The position numbers and the translations under genes are program-made. This document shows, in pieces, positions 11,301 to 48,953 of a DNA stretch of 64,000 bases. A model generated the notes under the pieces. That model was not told the DNA's origin. It did no database searches and was given only the letters and a program-made list of their open reading frames with translations. Within the stretch, counting starts at the first letter, position 1, and each line of letters starts with the position of its first letter. The stretch is from Candidatus Thorarchaeota archaeon (GTDB lineage: Archaea > Asgardarchaeota > Thorarchaeia > Thorarchaeales > Thorarchaeaceae): NCBI GenBank assembly GCA_963726195.1, contig CAVSBO010000003.1:64001-128000 (forward strand), in the 5' to 3' direction.

Positions 11301-13173
11301 TCAGCGTGTGGAGTGAGCTTCCTGCTTGAGCGACTGGATATGTGCCTTCAGGACATCCTCTGAGTTATCAGCTCTCACGAAGATGGGTACACTGTCCAAC
11401 CCAGTGGCTACGTAACTCGACAACAGCCAAGAGCCGGGTGGAAACTCAAGTGTCTTGTCCAGAATGCTCAGATCTATCTGGAACGAACTGCTGACGACCG
11501 TGCGATCGTATGGTCTGGGCAATGTGCCCACGAAGAAAGTGTGAAGTTGCTGCATGATGTTAGTGTTCACGTAGGCTATCCTCTGAGTAGCAATAGCCCC
11601 GCCCAGTCCATACTTCCTGCCCTGTCGAAGCAGTGTTCTCAACGGAGCGACTACAGCGAGCAACGTCTCCTGTAGCACCTGAAGGGATGAACTCCTGAGC
11701 CTCGTCAAAGACAAAGAGCATCTGAGGCTTGATTTGGAAGCTTCTTTTCCTGTGCCTAAGAGCCGAGCCAGTCATGCTGACTACGAGTTCCCTTAATGTC
11801 TCCGGGTCTGCGATAGAGACGCAAATTACCCGTTCTTCCCCCCATAGCATTCTCAGAATGTCTTTCGCACTGACCCCGGACTTCTTAGCTTTCTTTGCCC
11901 GTCCCAGCGAGTCCTTGAGTTTGCCCCTCGTTTTTGCCCATGCATAGACGTTTGACTTTTCGCTTACAAAGAACGCTTGAACGGCAGCCTGAGCAGCACC
12001 ATCAAATATCTCCACGAACTGGCTATCTATCTCGTCACTGTCGTTCTTTTTCGATGTCTCCATCCACGCTTCTACAGCGGCCATGACTTCATCTATCGCC
12101 TGCACATATGTTGGCTTTCCGGACGAATCGGCTTTGAGCTCCCGCATTTCCTCGATGATGCTGCCGTATGTTGGCACTTGTGCAAGAGGTTGATTGAAGA
12201 ACGTAACTCGCCCGGCATCATAGACTGCTTTGAGAGCCTCGTTGGCTTTCGAATCGTCCTCGAAATCCCGCGGCTTCACGATAGTACGAGCGAAGTCGTC
12301 CGCAGTACTTGCCTCTTCTTCAAGTATGATGCGAGAAGGAATTTTGGGATCTGAGAAGACATCGCAAAGCAGGAACGGGTACTCGCAGCTGATGTCAAAT
12401 AGGACCAGCTTAGTGTCTGTCACATGGTATAGTATTCTCCTGAGCAAGTTTGCCATCAGATTGCTCTTTCCGCCTCCTGTAAAGGAAAAGACACCGAAGT
12501 GGTAGCGTACCAACTTAGTAAGATCCACATAGATTGGTACCTCCTTTCCGGACTCCATGAACATCCTGAGTAGCCCAATCCTAGGATCCTTTCGGGGGTC
12601 GGCTGAGCTTGTCTTCTTCTTATACCCAAGAGCCTCTTTCACCTTCCCATTGTAGATCAGGTCCACAGTCTCCATATTGATTACGTGGACCTTGCCACCG
12701 AGAAGTGGATACGAGAACCCTTTCTTGAAATCGACCTTGCCTGATGAGTCGACGACCATATCATAGTTAATCGGTATGGCGTCGAGGTGAATCATCATTG
12801 TGGCTTGGTCATCGGTATCCCAATCTGGAAGAGCCTGTTCAATGACTTCCATCTGAAGAGGATAGTAATGACTGTCACTAACGCCCCCCAATCCATAGTG
12901 CAACGGCCATATCTTTGAAATGACCATGACGGTGTATCTCTGAAGGTTCTTCTCGATTGACAACTTGGACTGACCGCGGAAGTTGTTGACTGCGAGCATC
13001 ATGCCCTCTTCCAGCTGAGCCATGAGTTCCTTGTTGTAACGAACTTTCACTCTGCAGTCATATCTGGCCGCGGAAGCCGCCCACTCCGATGTGTAATTCG
13101 CAGCGACAGGAATAACCCGTGCTAGAACACCATCAAAGGTTCCATCAAAGTCTGTGAATAGTTGTTCAGCCAT
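11301..13173 (-). CDS. herA: HerA/FtsK-family ATPase (frameshift ~11637)
   Basis: N-terminal beta-barrel region, Walker A FSFTGGGKSN, Walker B LFVFDEAQ, then RQGRKYG and ATQR in the shifted frame. ATG 13173 overlaps the nurA stop. Confidence 0.85.
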
Positions 13174-37729: not shown

Positions 37730-38227
37730 ATGGAAGAGGTTCACACGCCAACATCAGCCTTTGCTCGAGAGATTGCAAGGCAACCTGGTGGAGAAGCCAT
37801 AAACAAGTGCATCCAGTGCGGCATATGCTCTGCTAGCTGTGCCGTCGCTAACGTATCAGACAAGTATCGCCCTCGTCAACTGATCCAGAAGATTCTGATT
37901 GGCGAGAGAAACGAGGTACTCAAGAGTGACCTTCCATGGCTCTGTATGACATGCAGGTTGTGTGAGGAGCGATGCCAAGAAGGCGTGAGCCCTGCTGAGA
38001 TATTCGAGGCCGTGCGACGCATCGCTGCTGAAGAGGGACACGTGCCCGATGTGTTCAATCGGACTGCTGACATGGTCCTTCGCGATGGGTGGATGCTGAA
38101 GGACTCTTTCACTGATTTCAATCAAGATGAGCGCAATGACTTGGGCCTAGATCCGGAATTAGGATGGGACAACGAGTTTACGAAGAAAGTGAAGGTTCGT
38201 TACTTCTCAGGAGGAAAAAAGAAGTGA
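37730..38227 (+). CDS. hdrC: Heterodisulfide reductase subunit C
   Basis: CIQCGICSASC; WLCMTCRLCEERC. Confidence 0.9.
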   Translation: MEEVHTPTSAFAREIARQPGGEAINKCIQCGICSASCAVANVSDKYRPRQLIQKILIGERNEVLKSDLPWLCMTCRLCEERCQEGVSPAEIFEAVRRIAAEEGHVPDVFNRTADMVLRDGWMLKDSFTDFNQDERNDLGLDPELGWDNEFTKKVKVRYFSGGKKK

Positions 38228-39105
38228 AGGAGTACATCCTGTATACGGGATGCACCACACCTGTCAGGCATCCAGGGTACGAAGCTGCCACGAGGGCCGT
38301 GCTTGAGAAGCTGGGTGTGCACCTTGTCACCGTGAAAGGGATGAACTGCTGCGGAGCGCAGTACATCGAGTCCCTAAACAGAATGGCCTTTGCCGCGATG
38401 GGCGGACGCATCCTCGCTCTCGCTGAACGCGAAGGCAAAGACATTCTGGCGATATGCGGTGCGTGTTCGGGTTCTTTGAAGCACAACAAGCACCTTCTTG
38501 ATACAGATAAGAAAGTCAGGGACGAAGTGAACTCGCTTCTGGCAAGTGAGGGGCTCAAGTACACGGGAAAGGTTGACGTCAAACATCTCTTGCAGGTCAT
38601 GAGAGACGATATTGGTTATGATAAAATCAAGGCCGCAACTGTGAGACCGTACACGGGCATTCGTCTTGCCGCTCACTATGGGTGTCACGTCACGAGACCC
38701 TACGACATAGTGAAGGTTGATGACCCCGAGAACCCGACCGTCATAGACAAAATCATCGAAGCGGTCGGCGCTACACCAGTTGACTACCCGGGCAAGACAA
38801 GATGCTGCGGCGGACCCTTGCTAGCAATGGACCAAGATCTGGCTGGCAAGATCGGTATGGAGAAGATAAGGAACGTTAGGTCCGTCGGAGCCCAAGGCAT
38901 CGTTACGGCATGTGTGTTCTGTGATATTCAGCTCACCCAAGTGCAATTCGGAGAAGACATTCAGCCTGAGGAACGCATTCCGGTTATCACACTTCCACAA
39001 TTCATGGGCCCGGCGCTTGGAATAGGTGACCAGGCACTAGGCCTCTACCTCACGAAGATAAGCCCTGATCATATTCTTGAAGCATTGCAGGAGGCAAAAA
39101 CGTGA
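38224..39105 (+). CDS. hdrB: Heterodisulfide reductase subunit B
   Basis: YTGC, CCG, CGAC, HYGCH, CCGG, CVFC (two CCG domains). Confidence 0.92.
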   Translation: MKEYILYTGCTTPVRHPGYEAATRAVLEKLGVHLVTVKGMNCCGAQYIESLNRMAFAAMGGRILALAEREGKDILAICGACSGSLKHNKHLLDTDKKVRDEVNSLLASEGLKYTGKVDVKHLLQVMRDDIGYDKIKAATVRPYTGIRLAAHYGCHVTRPYDIVKVDDPENPTVIDKIIEAVGATPVDYPGKTRCCGGPLLAMDQDLAGKIGMEKIRNVRSVGAQGIVTACVFCDIQLTQVQFGEDIQPEERIPVITLPQFMGPALGIGDQALGLYLTKISPDHILEALQEAKT

Positions 39106-40442
39106 GCAAGACCGCAGGAAAGAAATCATCTTCCTCAACGAAATCCAAGGGGTCTCAGAATGCTCTGGTAATAGGCGGCGGTGTCGCAGGAATGCAGGCA
39201 TCGCTAGACTTAGCAAATCAGGGATTCAAGGTCTACTTGGTAGAGAAGTCACCATCCATAGGCGGACGGATGGCAATGCTGGACAAGACATTTCCCACCT
39301 TGGATTGCTCGGCTTGCATTTTGACTCCCAGATTGAGCGAAGTCACTCATCATCCTAACATCAAGCTGCTGACCTATTCAGAAGTAGAGTCAATCAGCGG
39401 CACTGCTGGCAGTTTCAAGGTGAAAGTGCTAAGAAAGGCGCGGTTTGTTCGAGAGGACAAGTGTTCAGGTTGCGCTGCATGTTTTGCTGAGTGTCCAGTC
39501 GAAGCACCAAACGAATTCGATTGGGGAATAGGATTCAGGAAGGCGATTTACATTTCATTCCCACAGGCAACACCGAACATATCTACAGTGGACAAGGCAA
39601 CTTGTATCAAGTGCAACCGTTGTGTCAAGGTATGCGAACGAGAAGCAATAGACCTGAACATGACGGACGAATACGTTGATCTCGATGTCGGTGCGATTGT
39701 TGTTGCCACTGGCTATCGCCTATTTGATGTCGTTGCATACCCACGGCTGGGTTATGGCAAGTATGCCAATGTCATTCATGCAATGGAGTTCGAGCGACTA
39801 ATCAATGCTGCAGGCCCCACAGGCGGCCATCTGATTAGACTGAGTGACGGAAAGATACCCAAGAGCGTTGGATTTGTCCAGTGCGTCGGCGCCAGAGACG
39901 TGAACAAAGGTGTGCCGTTCTGTTCGAGGGTGTGCTGTATGTACGGCATCAAGAACGCAGTGATGACAAAGGAGCACTATCCTGATACTGATGTCACCGT
40001 ATACTATGCAGACATCAGAGCTTTCGGGAAGGGATTCGAAGAATTCTATGAGACTGCACAGAGTCGGTTTGGAGTCAAGTTCATGAAGGGAAGGGTCGGT
40101 GAGGTGGCCGAGAACCCAACGAGCGAGGATTTGGTAGTTCGGGTGGAGGATGTCTTACATCACAAAGTGATGCAGGTACAGCATGACCTTGTCGTTCTGT
40201 GTCCAGGGCTTCAGCCGCCGAAGGACTTGGAAAGTCTTGCCAACCAACTGGGAGTTGACCTCAGCGAGGAGGGTTACATTGAGGCTCAGAACGTATTTTC
40301 AGGCCCAGTGGATACGAAGATTCCAGGCGTCTACGTATGTGGTTGCGCTGACGGTCCTAAGGATATCCCCGATTCAGTAACAGCAGGAAGTGCTGCGGCC
40401 ATGAGAACTAGCATAGTACTCGCAAAAGGAGGCGCCGCGTAA
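39102..40442 (+). CDS. hdrA: Heterodisulfide reductase subunit A-like, FAD + central ferredoxin part
   Basis: GGGVAG, LDKTFPTLDCSACIL, 2x[4Fe-4S], CSRVCC, GPKDIP. Confidence 0.9.
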   Translation: MSKTAGKKSSSSTKSKGSQNALVIGGGVAGMQASLDLANQGFKVYLVEKSPSIGGRMAMLDKTFPTLDCSACILTPRLSEVTHHPNIKLLTYSEVESISGTAGSFKVKVLRKARFVREDKCSGCAACFAECPVEAPNEFDWGIGFRKAIYISFPQATPNISTVDKATCIKCNRCVKVCEREAIDLNMTDEYVDLDVGAIVVATGYRLFDVVAYPRLGYGKYANVIHAMEFERLINAAGPTGGHLIRLSDGKIPKSVGFVQCVGARDVNKGVPFCSRVCCMYGIKNAVMTKEHYPDTDVTVYYADIRAFGKGFEEFYETAQSRFGVKFMKGRVGEVAENPTSEDLVVRVEDVLHHKVMQVQHDLVVLCPGLQPPKDLESLANQLGVDLSEEGYIEAQNVFSGPVDTKIPGVYVCGCADGPKDIPDSVTAGSAAAMRTSIVLAKGGAA

Positions 40443-42190
40443 TGGCTACCAAGCAAACTCCTAGGATTGGAGTCTTTGTGTGTCACTGCGGGCACAACAT
40501 CGCTGGAGTCGTGGACGTGGCACGAGTGGCCAAGTCGGCGGAGACCTTGCCAAACGTGGTATTCGCAACTCACGAGATGTTCATGTGCTCAGATTCAGGC
40601 CAGAAGCTCATTAAGGACAAGATTGCTGAGCTCAACTTGAACCGAGTCGTTGTGGCCAGCTGCTCGCCGAGAATGCACGAGCCTACGTTCAGACGAGCCG
40701 TTGAGGAAGGAGGTTTGAACCGATATCTCTTCGAGCAGGTCAATCTCAGAGAGCACGTTTCATGGTGTCACATGCGCGAGCCCGAGGCGGCCACGAAAAA
40801 GGCGATAGATCTTGTTCGCATGTCTGTAACTCGTGCTGCCAAACTCGAGAGCTTGCCTATCAAGAGTGTGAAAGTCACTCCCAGAACTCTCGTTGTCGGT
40901 GGCGGGATTGCGGGCCTAACCGCCTCTCTCGATATAGCGGACAGAGGATTTGATGTCGTTCTCGTAGAAAAGCAGAAGGATCTGGGTGGGCACACAATCA
41001 AGTGGGATAGCCTATTCCCTACAGGAGAGAGTGGCACAGAAGTCATGAAACCCTTGATTCAGAAAGCAAAGACTCACAAGAGGATACAGGTGCTCACTGA
41101 CAGTGAGGTCACTAGCTTTGATGGATACATCGGAAACTTCGAAGCAACAATAAAGAACAAGTCGAATGGAACTAGCAAGAAGTTCGATGTCGGTGCCGTT
41201 ATCGTTACCACAGGGTTTGAACCTTTCAAACCTTCGGGCTACTTCTCATATGGTGATAGCCCTGACATCATGACACTGGCGGAATTCGAGGAACGGCCAA
41301 GGGATTCTCAGCTCTTGAAGCCGAGTGATGGTAGAACCGCCAAGAGGGTTGCATTCATCGGCTGCGTGGGATCCCGCGAACCCGGAAAGATCGGACATGA
41401 GCATTGTTCACGCTACTGCTGCACTGCCGTGTCAAAGGTGGCGGGAGACATCAGGGATAGGCTAGATGAAGTGCTGATTCTATACAAGGACATCCGCACT
41501 TATGGAAAGGGTCACGAGGAATTCTACAGACTAGCCCACGCTAAGAGTGTCATCTACTCAAGATACCCCACAGATGAGGAACCTTCCGTTAGTGTGAGAG
41601 ACGGTAAGATCGAGATTGACTGGAGAGACATCTTTGCAGACGAGCAGCTTCACTTCGAACCCGATCTCCTGATACTTGCTTCTGCCATGATGCCGCCTGA
41701 GGACATGGCGAACACTGCCAAGATGTTCAGTCTGACCCGAAGCGGTGATGGCTTCTTCAATCCTGAACACATTAAGCTGGCTCCTGTCACAACTCACACT
41801 GCAGGTATAATGATAGCAGGTGCTTCTCAGGCTGCCAAGAACGCTTCCGAATCGGTAATCGATGCAAGCGGAGCTGCAGCGAAGGCTGTTGGTCTGATGG
41901 CGAGAGGGCAGGTGGAGATTGAATCTACTGTTTCTCATGTGATTTCGGAACTGTGCTCCAGTTGTCGCACATGTGTCACGGCCTGTCCTTACGGAGCCAT
42001 TGCTATGGATGAGACCGAGAAACCTCCGGTAGCACTTGTGACAGAAGCAAAATGCCACGGTTGTGGAACCTGCGCTGCTGCGTGTCCGAGCAGTGCCATT
42101 ATCATGTATCATTCAACAGATGACCAGATTCTCACGATGGTCGAGGCGTACCTGTGTCCGCCCGTACCCGCTGAAGGAGGTGCCGCATGA
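40442..42190 (+). CDS. hdrA: Heterodisulfide reductase subunit A-like, N-terminal domain + FAD + C-terminal ferredoxin
   Basis: VCHCGHNI, CSPRMHE, GGGIAG, CSRYCC, CSSCRTCVTACP, CHGCGTCAAACP. Confidence 0.9.
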   Translation: MATKQTPRIGVFVCHCGHNIAGVVDVARVAKSAETLPNVVFATHEMFMCSDSGQKLIKDKIAELNLNRVVVASCSPRMHEPTFRRAVEEGGLNRYLFEQVNLREHVSWCHMREPEAATKKAIDLVRMSVTRAAKLESLPIKSVKVTPRTLVVGGGIAGLTASLDIADRGFDVVLVEKQKDLGGHTIKWDSLFPTGESGTEVMKPLIQKAKTHKRIQVLTDSEVTSFDGYIGNFEATIKNKSNGTSKKFDVGAVIVTTGFEPFKPSGYFSYGDSPDIMTLAEFEERPRDSQLLKPSDGRTAKRVAFIGCVGSREPGKIGHEHCSRYCCTAVSKVAGDIRDRLDEVLILYKDIRTYGKGHEEFYRLAHAKSVIYSRYPTDEEPSVSVRDGKIEIDWRDIFADEQLHFEPDLLILASAMMPPEDMANTAKMFSLTRSGDGFFNPEHIKLAPVTTHTAGIMIAGASQAAKNASESVIDASGAAAKAVGLMARGQVEIESTVSHVISELCSSCRTCVTACPYGAIAMDETEKPPVALVTEAKCHGCGTCAAACPSSAIIMYHSTDDQILTMVEAYLCPPVPAEGGAA

Positions 42191-42663
42191 TGGCTTCTGC
42201 GTCGGTACAGACAACTGACCAGACGACAGAACCACTGTCTGCCACTGGAGAAAAGCAATGGGAACCCAGGATTCTCGCGTACTGCTGTAACTGGTGCTCA
42301 TACGCCGGCGCTGATCTTGCTGGCACAAGCAGGATACAGTATCCTCCGAATGCAAGGATCCTCCGGGTGAATTGTACCGGACGCATCAGCCCTGAGTTCA
42401 TACTTGCCGCACTGGAAATGGGCGCAGACGGTGTCCTTGTATCGGGGTGTCACCCAGGTGATTGCCACTATACGAGCGGAAACCTAAAGCTTAGGGCCCG
42501 CTGGGCATTGCTTGAGAAGACAATCGAACAAGCCGGAGTAGATCCTCGACGTGTAAGACTGCAATGGGCGAGTGCGTCGGAAGCGCAGATATTCGCTGAT
42601 GGAGTGAGGACTCTCACAGAGCAGGTTCGTAAGCTTGGACCGATAGGGAGGGAATGGAAGTGA
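42187..42663 (+). CDS. mvhD: Methyl-viologen-reducing hydrogenase subunit D (all-Cys form)
   Basis: CCNWCSYAGAD, CTGR, GCHPGDCHY. Confidence 0.93.
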   Translation: MMASASVQTTDQTTEPLSATGEKQWEPRILAYCCNWCSYAGADLAGTSRIQYPPNARILRVNCTGRISPEFILAALEMGADGVLVSGCHPGDCHYTSGNLKLRARWALLEKTIEQAGVDPRRVRLQWASASEAQIFADGVRTLTEQVRKLGPIGREWK

Positions 42664-42893
42664 GAGAGTTCACGCAGTTCTTCGAACAGAACAGGGGTGC
42701 AGTCAGAAAGCAGAGGAAGTCCATAGAAGATGCACTCTCGTCTTCTCCCGCCACCGTAACAGAACTCGCTGCGAAGACTCAGCTGACTAAGAAGCTGATT
42801 GTATGGAACCTTATCGGGATGCTGAAGTGGGGCACTGTGGAAGTAAAAGGCGAGCATGATGATGAGCTCGTATATGCATTGAAGGAGGCCTGA
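42660..42893 (+). CDS. Small winged-helix protein embedded in the hdr-mvh operon
   Basis: PATVTELAAKTQL..IVWNL..MLKWG.V..VY. GTGA overlap with the mvhD stop. Confidence 0.7.
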   Translation: MREFTQFFEQNRGAVRKQRKSIEDALSSSPATVTELAAKTQLTKKLIVWNLIGMLKWGTVEVKGEHDDELVYALKEA

Positions 42894-42895
42894 GA

Positions 42896-43825
42896 ATGAC
42901 TGAGCCCGTTCCTGTAGCGATGGCACAGGGCAGTTCCTGCTGGGGCTGCTTTCAGAGTCTTATAGACATCCACCTCAAGCTTGCAGATGTTCTGCCACTG
43001 CTAAACATCAAGTATTGGCAAGCGGTGGTCGACTACAAGCTCAAGGATCTTGAAGGTTATCCTGACGGTTCAATCGCGGTTGGGTTCTACGAGGGAATGG
43101 CCAGAACGGAAGAGGACGTCCATCTTCTCAACACGATGCGAGCAAAGTGCAAGACGCTGATAGCGTTCGGCTCTTGCTCATGCTTCGGTGGTGTTCCGGG
43201 CATGGCCAACTTTTATGATATTGAGGAATGTTATGACGCCAAGTTCCGTCACAACAAAACTGTGAATGATGGGAAGGTTCCTTCAAAGAACGTTCCGCCA
43301 ATCGAGAATGTCGTCAGGCCTAACACGGACTACGTGAATTTCGAAGTGTTCCTGCCAGGCTGTCCTCCAACTTCAAAGTTGATCCTCACGGCGGTCAGTG
43401 CATTGCTGGAGGGTAAGCCCTTGGATTTGCCTCCACACACGGTCTGTCATTACTGCAAACGCGAGAAAAAGGAGACACCCATCTCAGAAATACTCAGACC
43501 GTACGTTGGCAAGGCCGATTCCAAGAGGTGCCTATTGGAACAGGGATACATTTGCATGGGTCCGTCGACGTGGGGACTATGTGAGGGACCGTGCGTGAAC
43601 AAGGGCGCAACATGCCGAGGCTGCTTTGGCCCATCGCCGCCTATAACCAAGGATCATGGTGCTGCGTCGATATCAATGCTCGGCACGTATGCACCGATTG
43701 AACCAGAGAGTCTTGTTGCACAGGTGAAAGACCCTCTCGGGACCTTCTACAGATTCGACTATCCCACAAGCCATCTAGGACGTATTCGTATCAAGCGCGA
43801 AGACGCAAAGAGGAGGCGCGAGTAG
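42896..43825 (+). CDS. mvhG: [NiFe] group 3c hydrogenase small subunit
   Basis: CWGC, GSCSCFGG, PGCPP, CLLEQG..CMGP, CRGCFG. Confidence 0.92.
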   Translation: MTEPVPVAMAQGSSCWGCFQSLIDIHLKLADVLPLLNIKYWQAVVDYKLKDLEGYPDGSIAVGFYEGMARTEEDVHLLNTMRAKCKTLIAFGSCSCFGGVPGMANFYDIEECYDAKFRHNKTVNDGKVPSKNVPPIENVVRPNTDYVNFEVFLPGCPPTSKLILTAVSALLEGKPLDLPPHTVCHYCKREKKETPISEILRPYVGKADSKRCLLEQGYICMGPSTWGLCEGPCVNKGATCRGCFGPSPPITKDHGAASISMLGTYAPIEPESLVAQVKDPLGTFYRFDYPTSHLGRIRIKREDAKRRRE

Positions 43826-43826
43826 A

Positions 43827-45144
43827 GTGCCAGAAGAAAAGACAATCCGGATCAATCCTGTTACTCGCCTCGAGGGTCATGGAGCTCTCACCATAAAGCT
43901 GGGTCCCGGCAACAAGGTGAAGGATGTTCAATTCAATATCGGGAGTACTCGCTTCTTTGAGCAGTTCATGGTTGGCAGGCCGATGGAGGAAGTACCAAGG
44001 ATTGCTCCAAGAATATGCGGCATCTGCCCCGAGCCACATCACCTAGCCTCAGTGAAGGCTGTCGAGGCCGCTTGGGATGTCAAGCCACCCCCTGCTGCAA
44101 CGAAACTGAGAACGGCTATTGCTCGAATCTAAGCAGCTATCTTCTCATGCGATTCATTTCTATGCGTTAGCAGCCCCTGACTTCGTCTTTGGCCCGTTCG
44201 CCAAGCCAGAAGTAAGAAACGTTGCTGCCGTTTTGAAGTACAAGCCGGATATCGCCGTGCAAGCTATCAAGATAATGGAGTTCGGTCAGGAACTCTGCAG
44301 GGACATAGGAGCAAAGGCCATCCATCCAGTGACTGCGATTCCTGGAGGAATGCTCAACACTCTGACAGAGGAAGAACGTGACAAGTGGCTTGCTGCCGTG
44401 CCCGCGATGCTGGACAATGTGCAGAAGACCGTTGCACTTGCAAAGACAGTCGTGAACGCTTACATCGACGTGATCAAGAAGGTAGCGGTAACTCCGACTT
44501 ACTACGTAGGGCTTTCGAACAGAGGAGTTCATGACATATACGACGGGACCGTTCATGTGATGGACCCCGCGGGAAAGATTGTTGCTGACTTTGAAGCAAA
44601 GGACTACACGAAGTACTTTGGTGAATATGTTCCTGAACACTCCTATGCGACCCACATCTACTACAAGCCCGCAGGCTATCCCCAAGGAATCTGGAGGGCG
44701 AACACACTCGCGAGATGCAACATCGCAGACAAGATGGCTACTCCACTTGCTGATGCAGCATTGAAGGAAATGCGAACCTTGCTTGGGAGACCTTCTCATC
44801 ACACTTTCGGCTATCACTATGCAAGGATAGTAGAGATGGTACAAGCCGCTGAATCAATCAAGAGGCTCCTAGAAGACCCAGACATCGTAAGTACAGACGT
44901 CAAGCTGTCAGATGTGCAGCCCAAGGCTGGTGATGGAGTAGGCGTTGTCGAAGCGCCTCGTGGTACCTGCTTGCATAACTACGAGTGCAACGATGAAGGC
45001 ATTGTTACCAAAGCAAACATTATAGTCGCGACGAACCACAACGTAGGCGGCATTGAGAAATCACTGATGGATGCTGCCAAGCTCATCTTTGAGCAGGACG
45101 GACTCAAGAAACTGAAACTCCCTGAACCACTTGTGAAAACCTAG
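43827..45144 (+). CDS. mvhA: [NiFeSe] group 3c hydrogenase large subunit lacking the C-terminal L2 motif (VhuA type; frameshift ~44110)
   Basis: TRLEGH, RICGIC (L1), EAPRG, IVAT. Ends without DPCxxC, which the next gene supplies. Confidence 0.9.
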
Positions 45145-45157
45145 AGAGGAAATCAAG

Positions 45158-45310
45158 ATGACAGACGAAATACCCGAAGGCGTGCTCAATCTCCTTGAGA
45201 TGGTAGTACGCTGCTATGACTGCTGACTCTCGTGCGCCGCTCATATCGTCATCGTGGACGAAGAGGGGCGCGAGATAGCCAGGAAGGAGATAGTGACCTG
45301 CGAAGAATGA
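45158..45310 (+). CDS. vhuU: Selenocysteine-containing hydrogenase small peptide subunit VhuU (UGA=Sec at 45224-45226)
   Basis: Translation MTDEIPEGVLNLLEMVVRCYDC-U-LSCAAHIVIVDEEGREIARKEIVTCEE*. The UGA falls at the Ni-ligand position of the L2 motif. GAGGA RBS; directly follows the L2-less large subunit. Confidence 0.92.
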
Positions 45311-45368
45311 AGGTGCGGTCGCAAAGAACTATACCGCGCTCGACAACCCTGCAAGGGTCGCCGGTCAC
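45293..45368 (+). promoter_or_regulatory. Eukaryote/Asgard-type SECIS element
   Basis: AUGAA (45307-11), 8-bp stem ggtgcggt/accgcgct, loop containing AAA, CGAC (45341-44). Lower helix possible via gtgacc/ggtcac. Confidence 0.75.
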
Positions 45369-45574
45369 TCTCCTTCGTTCTCTCTCATTTCTGTGTCATG
45401 ACGTGCCTTGACTTCAATGCTCTTGGTGGTATTTCCGGAGGATTTGAGCTATTGCCTCGATTAGATCACGCCCGGGTGCAATCAGCCAATCTGCATGCGG
45501 CACCCTTCTCTATTGGAGTGGATGCGAAAACGAGAAGGGGAGGATATATCTCGACCTACTCCAACCAAGAAAGC

Positions 45575-45757
45575 GTGACTAATCGCCAAGCCGAATCAAT
45601 ACCAAAGCAGGTGAGACGCCGACGCGACCGAGAGCAGATTGTGTCCGCTCTTCGTGCCAGACAGTTGTCCGGGGAGGAGACATTGTCCCTAGGACTCGAA
45701 CTATCCGACCTTGCGGTTCGAACGACCAGAAGGCAGCACGATGAACGAATTCGGTGA
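45575..45757 (+). CDS. Small basic protein, putative antitoxin partner
   Basis: ~60 aa (RARQLSGEETLSLGLELSD), overlapping the downstream nucleotidyltransferase start. Confidence 0.5.
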   Translation: MTNRQAESIPKQVRRRRDREQIVSALRARQLSGEETLSLGLELSDLAVRTTRRQHDERIR

Positions 45758-46310
45758 GGTTCTTCGGGTCGTCTGCAATTTCCTCAACGAGAATGAAGTC
45801 GACTATGTTGTGGTGGGCGGTATTGCTGTAATGTACTATGGTGTTCCCCGCACTACAACCGATATCGACCTGATTATCAGGATGAAGACTGCTGAAATGA
45901 GTCCGTTTGTTGTCTTTCTGAGCTCCCATGGATTCCATGCGAGATTAGAGGACTTGACTGCAGCGTTGAAAGAGGGCTCGCATTGCACTTTCTTCTACGG
46001 AAGAAGCCTCCTCAGACTGGACATTCAAGGGGTCGTCTCTGAGTTCGATAGAATGACCCTTGAAAGGGCAGTCAAGGTGAATCATCTAGGGACCGCTGTC
46101 AGGCTGGCAACGGCCGAAGATACTCTTGTCAACAAGGTGTATTTCCAAGCGGAGCAGGACCTGCGCGATGCCCTAGGAATTTATGTCCGCAATGAGGACA
46201 AGCTGGATTTCAGTTATATCGAGTCTACGTGCAGACTCCTCGGAATCGAAAACAGGTGGAAATCCTTTGTAAGAAAAGCCACCAGGAATATGAAAGAACA
46301 CACCGAGTAG
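45741..46310 (+). CDS. Nucleotidyltransferase (DUF6036/AbiEii-like, TA-associated)
   Basis: VVVGGIAV..YG.PRTTTDIDL, ATAED..K..QDLRD. Confidence 0.8.
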   Translation: MNEFGEVLRVVCNFLNENEVDYVVVGGIAVMYYGVPRTTTDIDLIIRMKTAEMSPFVVFLSSHGFHARLEDLTAALKEGSHCTFFYGRSLLRLDIQGVVSEFDRMTLERAVKVNHLGTAVRLATAEDTLVNKVYFQAEQDLRDALGIYVRNEDKLDFSYIESTCRLLGIENRWKSFVRKATRNMKEHTE

Positions 46311-46327
46311 GACTGGCCGAACCATGC

Positions 46328-46470
46328 TCGTGCACCTGTGATGTAACGATGAGAATGGGTGGCAGACGCCAAGAGCTAGCACGTGACGAGCGGCGAATGA
46401 ACGCGGAGTGGCAAAGAACTGTACCCCCTGGACAAACCCATCGAGGGTCACCGGTCATTTTCCTTCGGTT
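46328..46470 (+). repeat. Degenerate direct repeat of the vhuU 3' end/SECIS region (45229-45380)
   Basis: Colinear shared blocks gaatgaa, gcaaagaact, gacaa, agggtc.ccggtca, tccttcg at an offset of ~1090 bp. Confidence 0.75.
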
Positions 46471-46585: not shown

Positions 46586-47780
46586 ATGGAGCAGCCTACA
46601 ACAACCACGGATACAAAAGTCTGGTTCAAGCTGATAGTGATTCTCCTTTTTCTATTAGCACTACCGGAATACATGCAGTTCGGCTATGGTGGTTTCACAT
46701 ACTCCTCGGTGCTGTTTAACATCGGTTCGTATGTCGGGATAATGCAGTTGCCTTCAACGGGTCCCGTTTCCGTTACACCTCGAGCTCATCATTCTGGCTC
46801 TAATACTCTCGCTGCCAGGCATCATCTTCTTTGTTAGGATTCACGGAGCAAACCGAATAGGGCCAATCAGACGGTTAATGATAACATGTATCGTGACAAC
46901 CTTCGTTCTTGGTGCATTTGTCCTGAGCTTGTGGCCAGCTTTCATTCCAATGAGCTTTGTCGAGTATTATGTGTTTGCTGAGGTTGCGAATGCCTACGCA
47001 GTGTATGCTCTTGTGGCTCTGGTTTTCGTTCCGTTCTTTCTCCGTGAGTCAAGTTTCCTTCTGCCTATCTCCACCGAGCTAGGAGTGACGAAAGTATCTA
47101 CAATTCAACCCGGCCGTACAGCGAGCGCGAGAGTCGCCTATAGCATTGGTCTTCTTGTAGCGATCGTGACTCTCATCACACCAACGTTGGTAGCTTCCGT
47201 TGGTAACCAGTACGTTCGGCAGACAGTCTTTAGTGGCGTGACCATCAGTCTCCAGTTTATGGTGTACACGAGCATCGGGGAGGCGGGATCGCCTCTTTAC
47301 TCTCAAACTTACTATATGGTGAGTACTCTATTTCCCTTCGGGGCGCTTCTTGTCCTGTCCCTTCTGCGCGTCGTGTTTGCTCGAAACCTCATGCGCTACT
47401 ACAGAGGCATCGGACGAGTCGGGAGATTGTTGGCCACAGGAGCGATTGGTGAAGCCATGCTCTTTTCTCCATACATCCTCGCCTCCGGGTACTACATGAC
47501 AGTGTTGCCGCTACCCCTCTTGCCTGTCCTAGGACTCGTGTTGGTAAGACTTCGCGGATCGCTTACCTCTATGCGTGCGCCCAGCTATCTGGAGAAACTT
47601 CGCGAATCGCTTATCTCTATGCATGCGGTCAGCTATCCGGACGTCTGGCCGCTGACGTTCGAAGAGGAAGGTGTGACACGGCAAAGTGAGCAGAATCTCA
47701 AACGTGCTTCTGTGAAAGTGCCTGTCACATACGTGGTTATTTCGCGAATGCGTGGCCACCTTAGGCATACCCAGGAATAG
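46586..47780 (+). CDS. Polytopic membrane protein, paralog A (frameshift ~46781)
   Basis: Joined ORFs. Shares SLPG..RIH, RESSFL, RV.FA..L.RYYRG.G, RGSLT with paralog B. Confidence 0.7.
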
Positions 47781-47843: not shown

Positions 47844-48953
47844 ATGAAATGTGGTAAGCAGGTTACGAAAGGCATCGACGCGAGAGTGCTGCTCAAGCTC
47901 GCAATACTAATGCTCGTTTTGTACATCCTGCCATTGGAAGTCAGGGTCCTCGATGCTCCCATTGCATACTACTCGGTCCTCTTCTTTATGGGGTCTGGCG
48001 GCATGGGAGAAATCGGGACGACCTCAGGCGGCATCAGCTCTTGCTCCGCCTGCCATTATTCTCTTGGCAGTGGCTGAGTCTTTGCCGGGGGCTTTCTTCT
48101 TCCTGCGTATTCACGAATCTGGCCGCTCTGGACAAATCAGAGGGCTATTCATTGGTTCTGTGGTTGGAACGTTCTTTCTCGCTATGCTTCTGCCCCAGAA
48201 TTGGTTTGAGACTTTTCCATACCCATCGCCCTTGTCCTGGGAGTTCAGTGATGTTGCCGGTATCTACCCAACGATAGCTCTACTGGGTCTGATACTCATC
48301 CCGCTCCTTTTCCGTGAGTCATCTTTTCTTGCGCGAGAGAGGGCGGAGCACCAACAGGAGAAGGAATCCGCTATACTCTCAACTCGGGTCGCCAGCTTCT
48401 GGGTTTCGAATGGTATTGCGTTGGTGATTGCGCTTGTGACATTCTTCGTGCCCTCTGGGTTTGGGACACAATCTGGCCAAGGTTCTCCAGTTGGAGCTGG
48501 GAGAGCGTTGTCGCAACGGTTTATTCACAGGATTTTTGGTTTTCATCTTTCACGCAGTCGCAGACCAGATCCTTGTTCTATCCCCTTTTCCAGTTTGTGG
48601 TAATCCTTGTCGAGTCTTCTGTTCGGGTTCTCTTCGCCCAGAGGCTCATACGCTACTATCGTGGATTCGGACAGACTCGTAGAGTCCTAGCAATCGGAGT
48701 GATTGGCGAGGTCTTGGCGAATTCCCCCTACATCTACCAGGTTTATACCATCATTCTTCTGTACGGCCGCTATTGGGGCAGTCTCGTGCTGCCGGTGCCT
48801 TTGTTCTTCATTCTGGGACTGCTGTTCATGAAGTTTCGTGGCTCACTGACAACAAGAGAAGTGGTAAGTGATGCTGGCATGCGGTCCATGACGTTTGAGA
48901 AGGAACCAGCAGCAATCTCCAGTGGACAAAGCGTTGATGCTGCATCGCAATAG
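47844..48953 (+). CDS. Polytopic membrane protein, paralog B (frameshifts ~48037 and ~48485-48497)
   Basis: Three ORF pieces colinear with paralog A. Confidence 0.65.

Follow-up and report, generated by a model that had tools for sequence, protein, structure and literature searches.

A vhuU gene with a eukaryote-like SECIS element very probably completes a split [NiFeSe] hydrogenase in a Thorarchaeia genome

Results and Discussion

A small frame at the end of the hydrogenase operon

From our analysis of a 64-kb window of Candidatus Thorarchaeota DNA (the whole stretch that was analysed, 64,000 nucleotides; positions given without a contig refer to it), the small frame at 45158-45310 is very probably a real selenocysteine-containing vhuU gene, which supplies the last two Ni ligands of a Thorarchaeia group-3c [NiFeSe] hydrogenase. 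It is the last gene of a tightly packed operon on one strand, arranged as hdrCB-hdrA-hdrA-mvhD-mvhG-vhuA-vhuU, and the operon partners VhuA, VhuG, VhuD, and Hdr were all assigned beside it using Pfam and NCBIfam.

37730-38227, + strand: HdrC-like 4Fe-4S dicluster subunit, first gene of the operon (Pfam Fer4_8, Fer4_17)
38164-39105, + strand: HdrB-like subunit with two CCG domains (Pfam PF02754, E 7.9e-27)
39102-40442, + strand: HdrA-like flavoprotein 1, 446 aa, in-frame TGA absent (ORF; Pfam Pyr_redox_2/Fer4)
40442-42190, + strand: HdrA-like flavoprotein 2, 582 aa, in-frame TGA absent (ORF; Pfam)
42187-42663, + strand: MvhD/VhuD delta subunit, Cys form, no TGA (Pfam FlpD, E 2.7e-51; NCBIfam VhuD)
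42896-43825, + strand: hydrogenase small subunit, MvhG/VhuG type (Pfam Oxidored_q6)
43827-44111, + strand: N-terminal piece of VhuA, bearing the RICGIC Ni ligands (Pfam NiFeSe_Hases, positions 1-57)
44113-45144, + strand: remainder of VhuA in the +1 frame, without a C-terminal DPCxxCxxH (88% identical to same-genus relatives)
45146-45149, + strand: GAGG ribosome-binding site, 8 nt 5' of the vhuU ATG (read from the sequence)
45158-45310, + strand: vhuU, encoding the 50-residue precursor of a predicted selenopeptide (translation; NCBIfam VhuU NF041786; relatives)
45224-45226, + strand: UGA, very probably read as selenocysteine (aligned to the first Cys of the C-terminal Ni-ligand motif)

VhuA ends with ...LPEPLVKT followed by TAG at 45142-45144, and the DPCxxCxxH motif is absent; an earlier sequence-only reading of this DNA had noticed the missing C-terminal Ni ligands of the large subunit, and the ORF does stop at 45144 without them. 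After a vhuA-vhuU spacer of 13 nt (45145-45157), the vhuU frame with TGA translated as U reads MTDEIPEGVLNLLEMVVRCYDC-U-LSCAAH-IVIVDEEGREIARKEIVTCEE-stop, giving the layout Cys19-x-x-Cys22-Sec23-x-x-Cys26-x-x-His29 and then a tail of 21 residues. The 50-codon frame, the ribosome-binding site, the 13-base spacer, and the 21-aa tail described in the sequence-only reading were each checked in the sequence and stand as described. The same reading had stated that MvhD and both HdrA copies lack an in-frame UGA, and all three are indeed uninterrupted ORFs; MvhD aligns to positions 1-127 of the 132 positions of the NCBIfam VhuD model without a stop. Its proposal that VhuU is the only selenoprotein of the operon is consistent with our data, in which the operon showed neither a further in-frame TGA nor another SECIS of the VhuU type.

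The adjacent HdrA-like proteins (39102-42190) differ in their domains, the first consisting of an FAD domain with an inserted ferredoxin and the second of an N-terminal Cys-rich domain, an FAD domain, and a C-terminal ferredoxin. Jointly, the two may do the work of a single canonical HdrA. A 79-codon ORF (42654-42893), for which NCBIfam gave no match, fills the space from mvhD to mvhG.

Conservation of the UGA codon and of the frame beyond it

The UGA position of VhuU aligns with the Cys of DPCLSCATH in MvhA/FrhA and with the X (Sec) of PDB 9SFI chain M. We compared 23 related loci and found, in 20 of them, a small ORF with TGA at the same codon 3' of the orthologous large subunit, carrying the motif ...R-C-Y-D-C-*-L-S-C-[AG]-A-H; at least two of the three loci without the small ORF are at a contig end, with the downstream DNA cut off. 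This recurrence of the same ORF and TGA codon shows that the vhuU frame is not a product of chance. More distant large subunits are fused and read R-A-Y-D-P-C-L-A-C-A-T-H, the codon being TGT or TGC.

Among 301 genomes sampled from the phylum, 139 carried a match to VhuU, and exactly one TGA was present in all but two of the approximately 150 VhuU matches listed. Both TGA-free homologues have TGT (Cys) at the Sec codon, and no ATGA-type element follows their stop codon; judged from the aligned codons, these exceptions represent the classical Sec/Cys pair. The sequence-only reading had suggested looking for such a UGA/Cys alignment in orthologues, and it was found. One of the Cys forms (L094, G015:C63:34200-34600) reads ...DCCLSCSAF... 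with TGT at the Sec codon, its cleavage-site His is replaced by Phe, and no ATGA-type SECIS follows it.

The sequence on both sides of the UGA evolves as a protein-coding frame. Pairwise divergence at the three codon positions was 0.12/0.04/0.41 before the UGA and 0.15/0.11/0.36 after it (42 distinct genes), and the third-position-biased divergence after the UGA indicates that the downstream frame is under coding selection. The LSCxAH motif is essentially invariant among the relatives, and the distance from the UGA to the stop codon is 84 nt in nearly all orthologues.

The top family for the peptide was NCBIfam VhuU NF041786 (E 3.2e-16), with 58.9 bits falling under the curated cut-off of 70, for a query with C in place of U and an equivalog model built for methanogens; Pfam assigned no family to the vhuU peptide. 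The 21-residue tail resembles the FrhA extension. With the TGA conserved, VhuU as the top NCBIfam match, the 9SFI chains as the closest solved structures, and the Sec machinery present in the genome, the earlier assignment of this frame to a VhuU selenoprotein is borne out.

A eukaryote-like SECIS element overlapping the stop codon

Immediately around the vhuU stop codon, we identified a candidate SECIS element with the following parts.

45283-45376, + strand: SECIS (fold, covariation, covariance model)
45283-45301 (coding) with 45359-45376, + strand: lower helix (fold)
45307-45310, + strand: AUGA core, containing the vhuU stop codon UGA
45312-45319 with 45333-45340, + strand: upper stem, 8 bp (fold, covariation)
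45342-45343, + strand: GA
45346-45358, + strand: side hairpin

In the Methanococcales-type archaeal SECIS, a GC-rich 3' UTR hairpin carries a GAA_A internal loop. In contrast to this methanogen GAA_A type, the element found here is, from its conserved letters and predicted fold, of the Asgard eukaryote-like type I (AUGA/GA), for which an upper stem of 7-15 bp is expected. Its core begins at the stop codon, 83 nt past the Sec UGA, with the AUGA sitting in the internal loop, and the apical loop of 10-14 nt contains AAA, two A residues being invariant. The lower helix pairs the vhuU codons for RKEIVTC with the distal UTR, and the element may function as a three-way junction, with its lower helix drawn from the coding sequence.

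The fold has an MFE of -46.9 kcal/mol (z -3.6). Across 44 distinct orthologous sequences, ATGA is invariant (44/44) and, in the GAC, G is more than 90% conserved and A and C are invariant; in the upper stem, 93.8% of the cells are paired and seven of the eight pairs show double compensatory changes. The covariation score was 0.62; shuffles gave 0.36, sliding the partner column gave no more than 0.20, and none of 500 shuffles reached the observed score. In 18 family-level sequences, the full architecture had 86.9% of the cells paired and 13 pairs with double changes. A covariance model of the core gave 48.1 bits at vhuU, on par with the orthologues, and no score above 11 bits in the rest of the operon. 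Rfam at gathering thresholds gave no match in the 64-kb window. A loose search for the pattern ATGA..AAA..GA was no better than chance (51 matches against 42 expected) and was set aside; one of its matches pointed to a decayed copy at 46397. A SECIS-model match at C5:66934 (19.6 bits) was dismissed as a chance hit, as there is no open frame upstream.

46290-46470, + strand: decayed second copy of the vhuU 3' half and SECIS, a non-functional relic (identity, fold, model score)

This copy, separated from the live vhuU by approximately 1.1 kb of unrelated DNA, is about 78% identical and carries indels and in-frame stops. It lacks a stable fold (z +1.0), three of its eight stem pairs are broken, and its model score is 23.5 bits. 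The 5' end of the decayed copy forms the last codons of a 199-aa ORF (45711-46310) without a family match. That this ORF reads through a TGA into the decayed copy was considered and rejected, since it ends in TAG and more stops follow. A second intact vhuU lies on another contig (G000:C5:11982-12131, - strand, L096), with the TGA and its own AUGA-stop SECIS (41.3 bits), and adjoins a paralogous large subunit that is 59% identical.

Sec machinery and maturation protease

The set of Sec machinery genes, which the sequence-only reading had named as a check, was found in full in the genome: tRNA-Sec, SelB, SepSecS, PSTK, and SelD. Four of these (SelB, SepSecS, tRNA-Sec, and PSTK) form a cluster on contig C13. 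SelB scored 275.7 bits, over its cut-off, whereas PSTK, with 135.7 bits, was under its equivalog cut-off; tRNA-Sec scored 57.7 bits against a gathering score of 47 and has the anticodon TCA and an acceptor stem of 9 bp. ARAGORN found nothing in the 64-kb window, the tRNA-Sec being on another contig. SepSecS (363.8 bits) was matched in two adjacent frames; in this gene (G000:C13:131935-133207, L003), the frame junction lies near C13:132140-132160, between ...GEREGRTASPL and RLSAGFNHGVGRSG.... SelD on contig C7 (G000:C7:50061-50906, L005) scored 223 bits and has one in-frame TGA, which is indicative that the selenophosphate synthetase is itself a selenoprotein, and SelD has been reported as a selenoprotein in Asgard archaea. 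A gene of the HycI family of hydrogenase endopeptidases is also present (49.8 bits against a cut-off of 23).

The frame change in the large subunit

In the assembly, vhuA is covered by two open frames, 43827-44132 and 44119-45144. Alignment to nine relatives places one extra base near 44107-44113, separating VhuA pieces of 101 aa and 341 aa in different frames: the junction reads ...ATKLR against RLLLESKQLSSH..., and the nine relatives read ...AAIKLRRLLIEAKQLSSH... in a single frame. Both pieces are otherwise free of stops, and the open frame of the large subunit in same-genus relatives is 443-471 aa. The best solved match of VhuA was PDB 9SFI chain g (VhuA, 418 aa, E 1.5e-93), ahead of MvhA. 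The split hydrogenase of the sequence-only reading is therefore to be amended: the ligand motif does sit on a separate peptide, but the enzyme is in three pieces in this assembly and not in two, owing to the 1-nt frameshift in vhuA.

Other genes of the window show the same behavior. When set against the syntenic contig G002:C36 of a same-genus genome (the same-genus genomes are Candidatus Thorarchaeota isolates OWC5 and OWC3), at least six genes in approximately 55 kb change frame, including five besides vhuA.

Near 11640, 13327, 14525, 25230, and 53282: further frame changes in five genes, compared with intact ORFs on the syntenic contig

The assembly thus appears to be indel-prone, and because of this number of frame-changing genes, it is highly likely that the frame changes of vhuA and SepSecS are assembly indels and not pseudogenes. 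If they were real, the organism would have neither a working enzyme nor working Sec synthesis. Programmed +1 frameshifting in vhuA was also considered and was rejected, as the frame is continuous in the relatives and vhuA shares its frame change with at least five more genes of the window. Downstream of the operon, two overlapping ORFs in different frames (47953-48953) jointly resemble a 300-aa membrane protein encoded at 46878-47780 and are probably another frameshifted paralogue.

Weighing the alternative explanations

Conceivably, the hydrogenase could be a decaying pseudogene in this organism, in which a true 1-nt insertion broke vhuA, another broke SepSecS, and the vhuU copy fell into disuse. 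The site near 44109-44112 that nine relatives read in one frame, the SepSecS matches in two frames, and the decayed vhuU/SECIS relic 1.1 kb downstream would all suit such a history. Nevertheless, selective decay accounts less well than an indel-prone assembly for frame changes in at least six genes of ~55 kb; both vhuA pieces have remained free of other stops and 88% identical to the relatives, vhuU is intact together with its SECIS, their scores equal those of the orthologues, and contig C5 carries another intact vhuA-vhuU pair. We consider decay unlikely, and a live gene with a probable assembly indel in its neighbor is the reading that we retain.

Two further explanations dispute the decoding of the UGA. 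The TGA could be an ordinary stop, leaving a peptide of only 22 residues and a relic of an ancestral fused large subunit as the source of the downstream Ni-ligand similarity. TGA does serve as a stop in this genome, including at the end of vhuU itself, and the vhuU peptide has no match in Pfam. A relic is extremely improbable in view of a downstream frame conserved with third-position-biased divergence over 42 distinct genes, an essentially invariant LSCxAH, a covarying SECIS after the frame, homologues with a Cys codon, and a complete Sec machinery. It is also very improbable, if marginally less so, that a near-cognate tRNA reads the UGA as Cys or Trp instead of Sec. Some database entries do translate the Sec codon as W, which is an artefact of gene calling with code 4, and Cys works at the Sec position in homologues; against this, the genome encodes a dedicated tRNA-Sec, SelB, PSTK, SepSecS, and SelD, the SECIS follows only the TGA-containing copies and neither of the two TGT copies examined, and there is no sign of genome-wide TGA reassignment, since ORFs of the window end in TGA. 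Selenocysteine insertion at 45224-45226 is the decoding that we carry forward.

Proposed mechanism

By analogy with Methanococcus and with published work on Asgard archaea, Sec insertion, assembly with VhuA, tail cleavage, and Hdr-linked bifurcation can be envisaged as follows. VhuA stops short of the C-terminal metal-binding motif, which VhuU would supply in trans: Sec23 would replace the first Cys Ni ligand and Cys26 would be the second, and by homology the two would complete a Ni-Fe site of which RICGIC, in the N-terminal part of VhuA, forms the beginning. The UGA at 45224-45226 would be recoded as Sec by the eukaryote-like SECIS, predicted to recruit the archaeal SelB/EFSec with Sec-tRNA(Sec), both encoded in the genome as judged by homology, and termination would take place at the UGA inside the SECIS core. 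In Methanococcus voltae, the tail of VhuU is removed after the His. After metal insertion, the HycI-family endopeptidase probably removes the 21-residue tail here after His29, and the mature enzyme, again from homology, may perform H2-driven electron bifurcation with the Hdr-like module.

Comparison with known systems

The closest counterparts are the VhuU proteins of Methanococcales (M. voltae and M. maripaludis; NF041786; 9SFI chain M). As in the present operon, VhuU in these organisms is a separate small peptide directly after a truncated VhuA, Sec is at the first Cys of U-x-x-C-x-x-H, a C-terminal extension runs past the His, and VhuD, VhuG, and Hdr partners share the operon. Chain M of 9SFI, from the M. 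maripaludis Hdr-Vhu-Fwd structure, is a 27-residue VhuU reading ...RAYDP-X-YSCAAH. The motif differs, being R-C-Y-D-C-U here and R-A-Y-D-P-U in 9SFI, and so does the host, a non-methanogen here against the Methanococcales methanogens. A more distant relation is bacterial HysA (PDB 5JSU; weak match, E 1.5), in which Sec likewise replaces the terminal Cys Ni ligand in the C-terminal motif; unlike the protein found here, HysA is fused and periplasmic (group 1), and its bacterial SECIS lies inside the coding sequence.

Among Asgard archaea, VhuU was described as a selenoprotein of Lokiarchaeota, together with a lokiSECIS whose stem is preceded by AUGA and whose loop is A-rich (Mariotti et al., 2016; PMC4989117); in Loki VhuU.1, the UGA within this AUGA is also the stop codon (PMC4989117). 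The present gene is alike in having a VhuU of approximately 50 residues with one Sec, a SECIS directly after the coding sequence, and AUGA as the stop. In the Loki SECIS, the stem is 9 bp, the loop is 11 nt, and the stem is followed in VhuU by AA, compared with 8 bp, 10-14 nt, and GA here, and the extra side hairpin and long lower helix distinguish the present element from the Loki SECIS as described in PMC4989117. In a later survey, the FrhA/MvhA/VhuU selenoprotein occurred in 68.3% of the Asgard archaea that use Sec, and 77.4% of Thorarchaeia were Sec users; the type I eSECIS-like elements of Thorarchaeia have AUGA_GA, a loop starting with G-N-AAA, and lower-stem pairs of the form [U/C]GG_C[C/U][A/G] (Huang et al., 2024; PMC11227280). 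The Thorarchaeia frhA/VhuU elements of that work match ours in class of organism and gene family, and their G-N-AAA and lower-stem pairs are seen in the present alignments; there is no substantial difference, and the main text mentions neither a side hairpin nor Cys-Sec adjacency. The statement of the sequence-only reading that Sec systems including VhuU have been reported in Asgard archaea agrees with both papers, the second including Thorarchaeia. Since VhuU, the SECIS type, and the stop overlap were published in 2016 and 2024, the finding is correct but already known. The three-way junction with a coding lower helix is absent from the main texts of PMC4989117 and PMC11227280.

Significance and a C-x-x-C-U motif

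The value of the observation is in annotation and not in discovery, because the biology was published in 2016 for Lokiarchaeota and in 2024 across the Asgard archaea. It confirms that a peptide bearing half of the hydrogenase active site escapes gene callers. With vhuU left out, annotation would class the Thorarchaeia Vhu/Mvh-Hdr complex as dead, and hydrogen metabolism in these relatives of eukaryotes would therefore be under-called. The element at vhuU, which covaries over 44 sequences, also adds a well-supported example of a eukaryote-like SECIS.

Of all these features, only the C19-x-x-C22-U23 motif (Cys19-Tyr-Asp-Cys22-Sec23) could warrant experimental work. It was present in 37 of the 38 distinct Sec forms examined; in the Methanococcales VhuU and in the Cys-type large subunits that were matched, A-x-x-P-U/C stands in its place. 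A vicinal Cys-Sec pair occurs in thioredoxin reductase. From the motif, either the Cys-Sec or the CxxC pair could act as a reversible selenenylsulfide or disulfide, protecting the Ni site or gating it, and such a C-x-x-C-U redox switch would, if true, be a distinct variant of [NiFeSe] hydrogenase. A redox-switch variant and, separately, a three-way-junction SECIS are, taken together, a tentative and rather doubtful proposal. As with the junction, neither C-x-x-C-U nor Cys-Sec adjacency appears in the main texts of PMC4989117 and PMC11227280.
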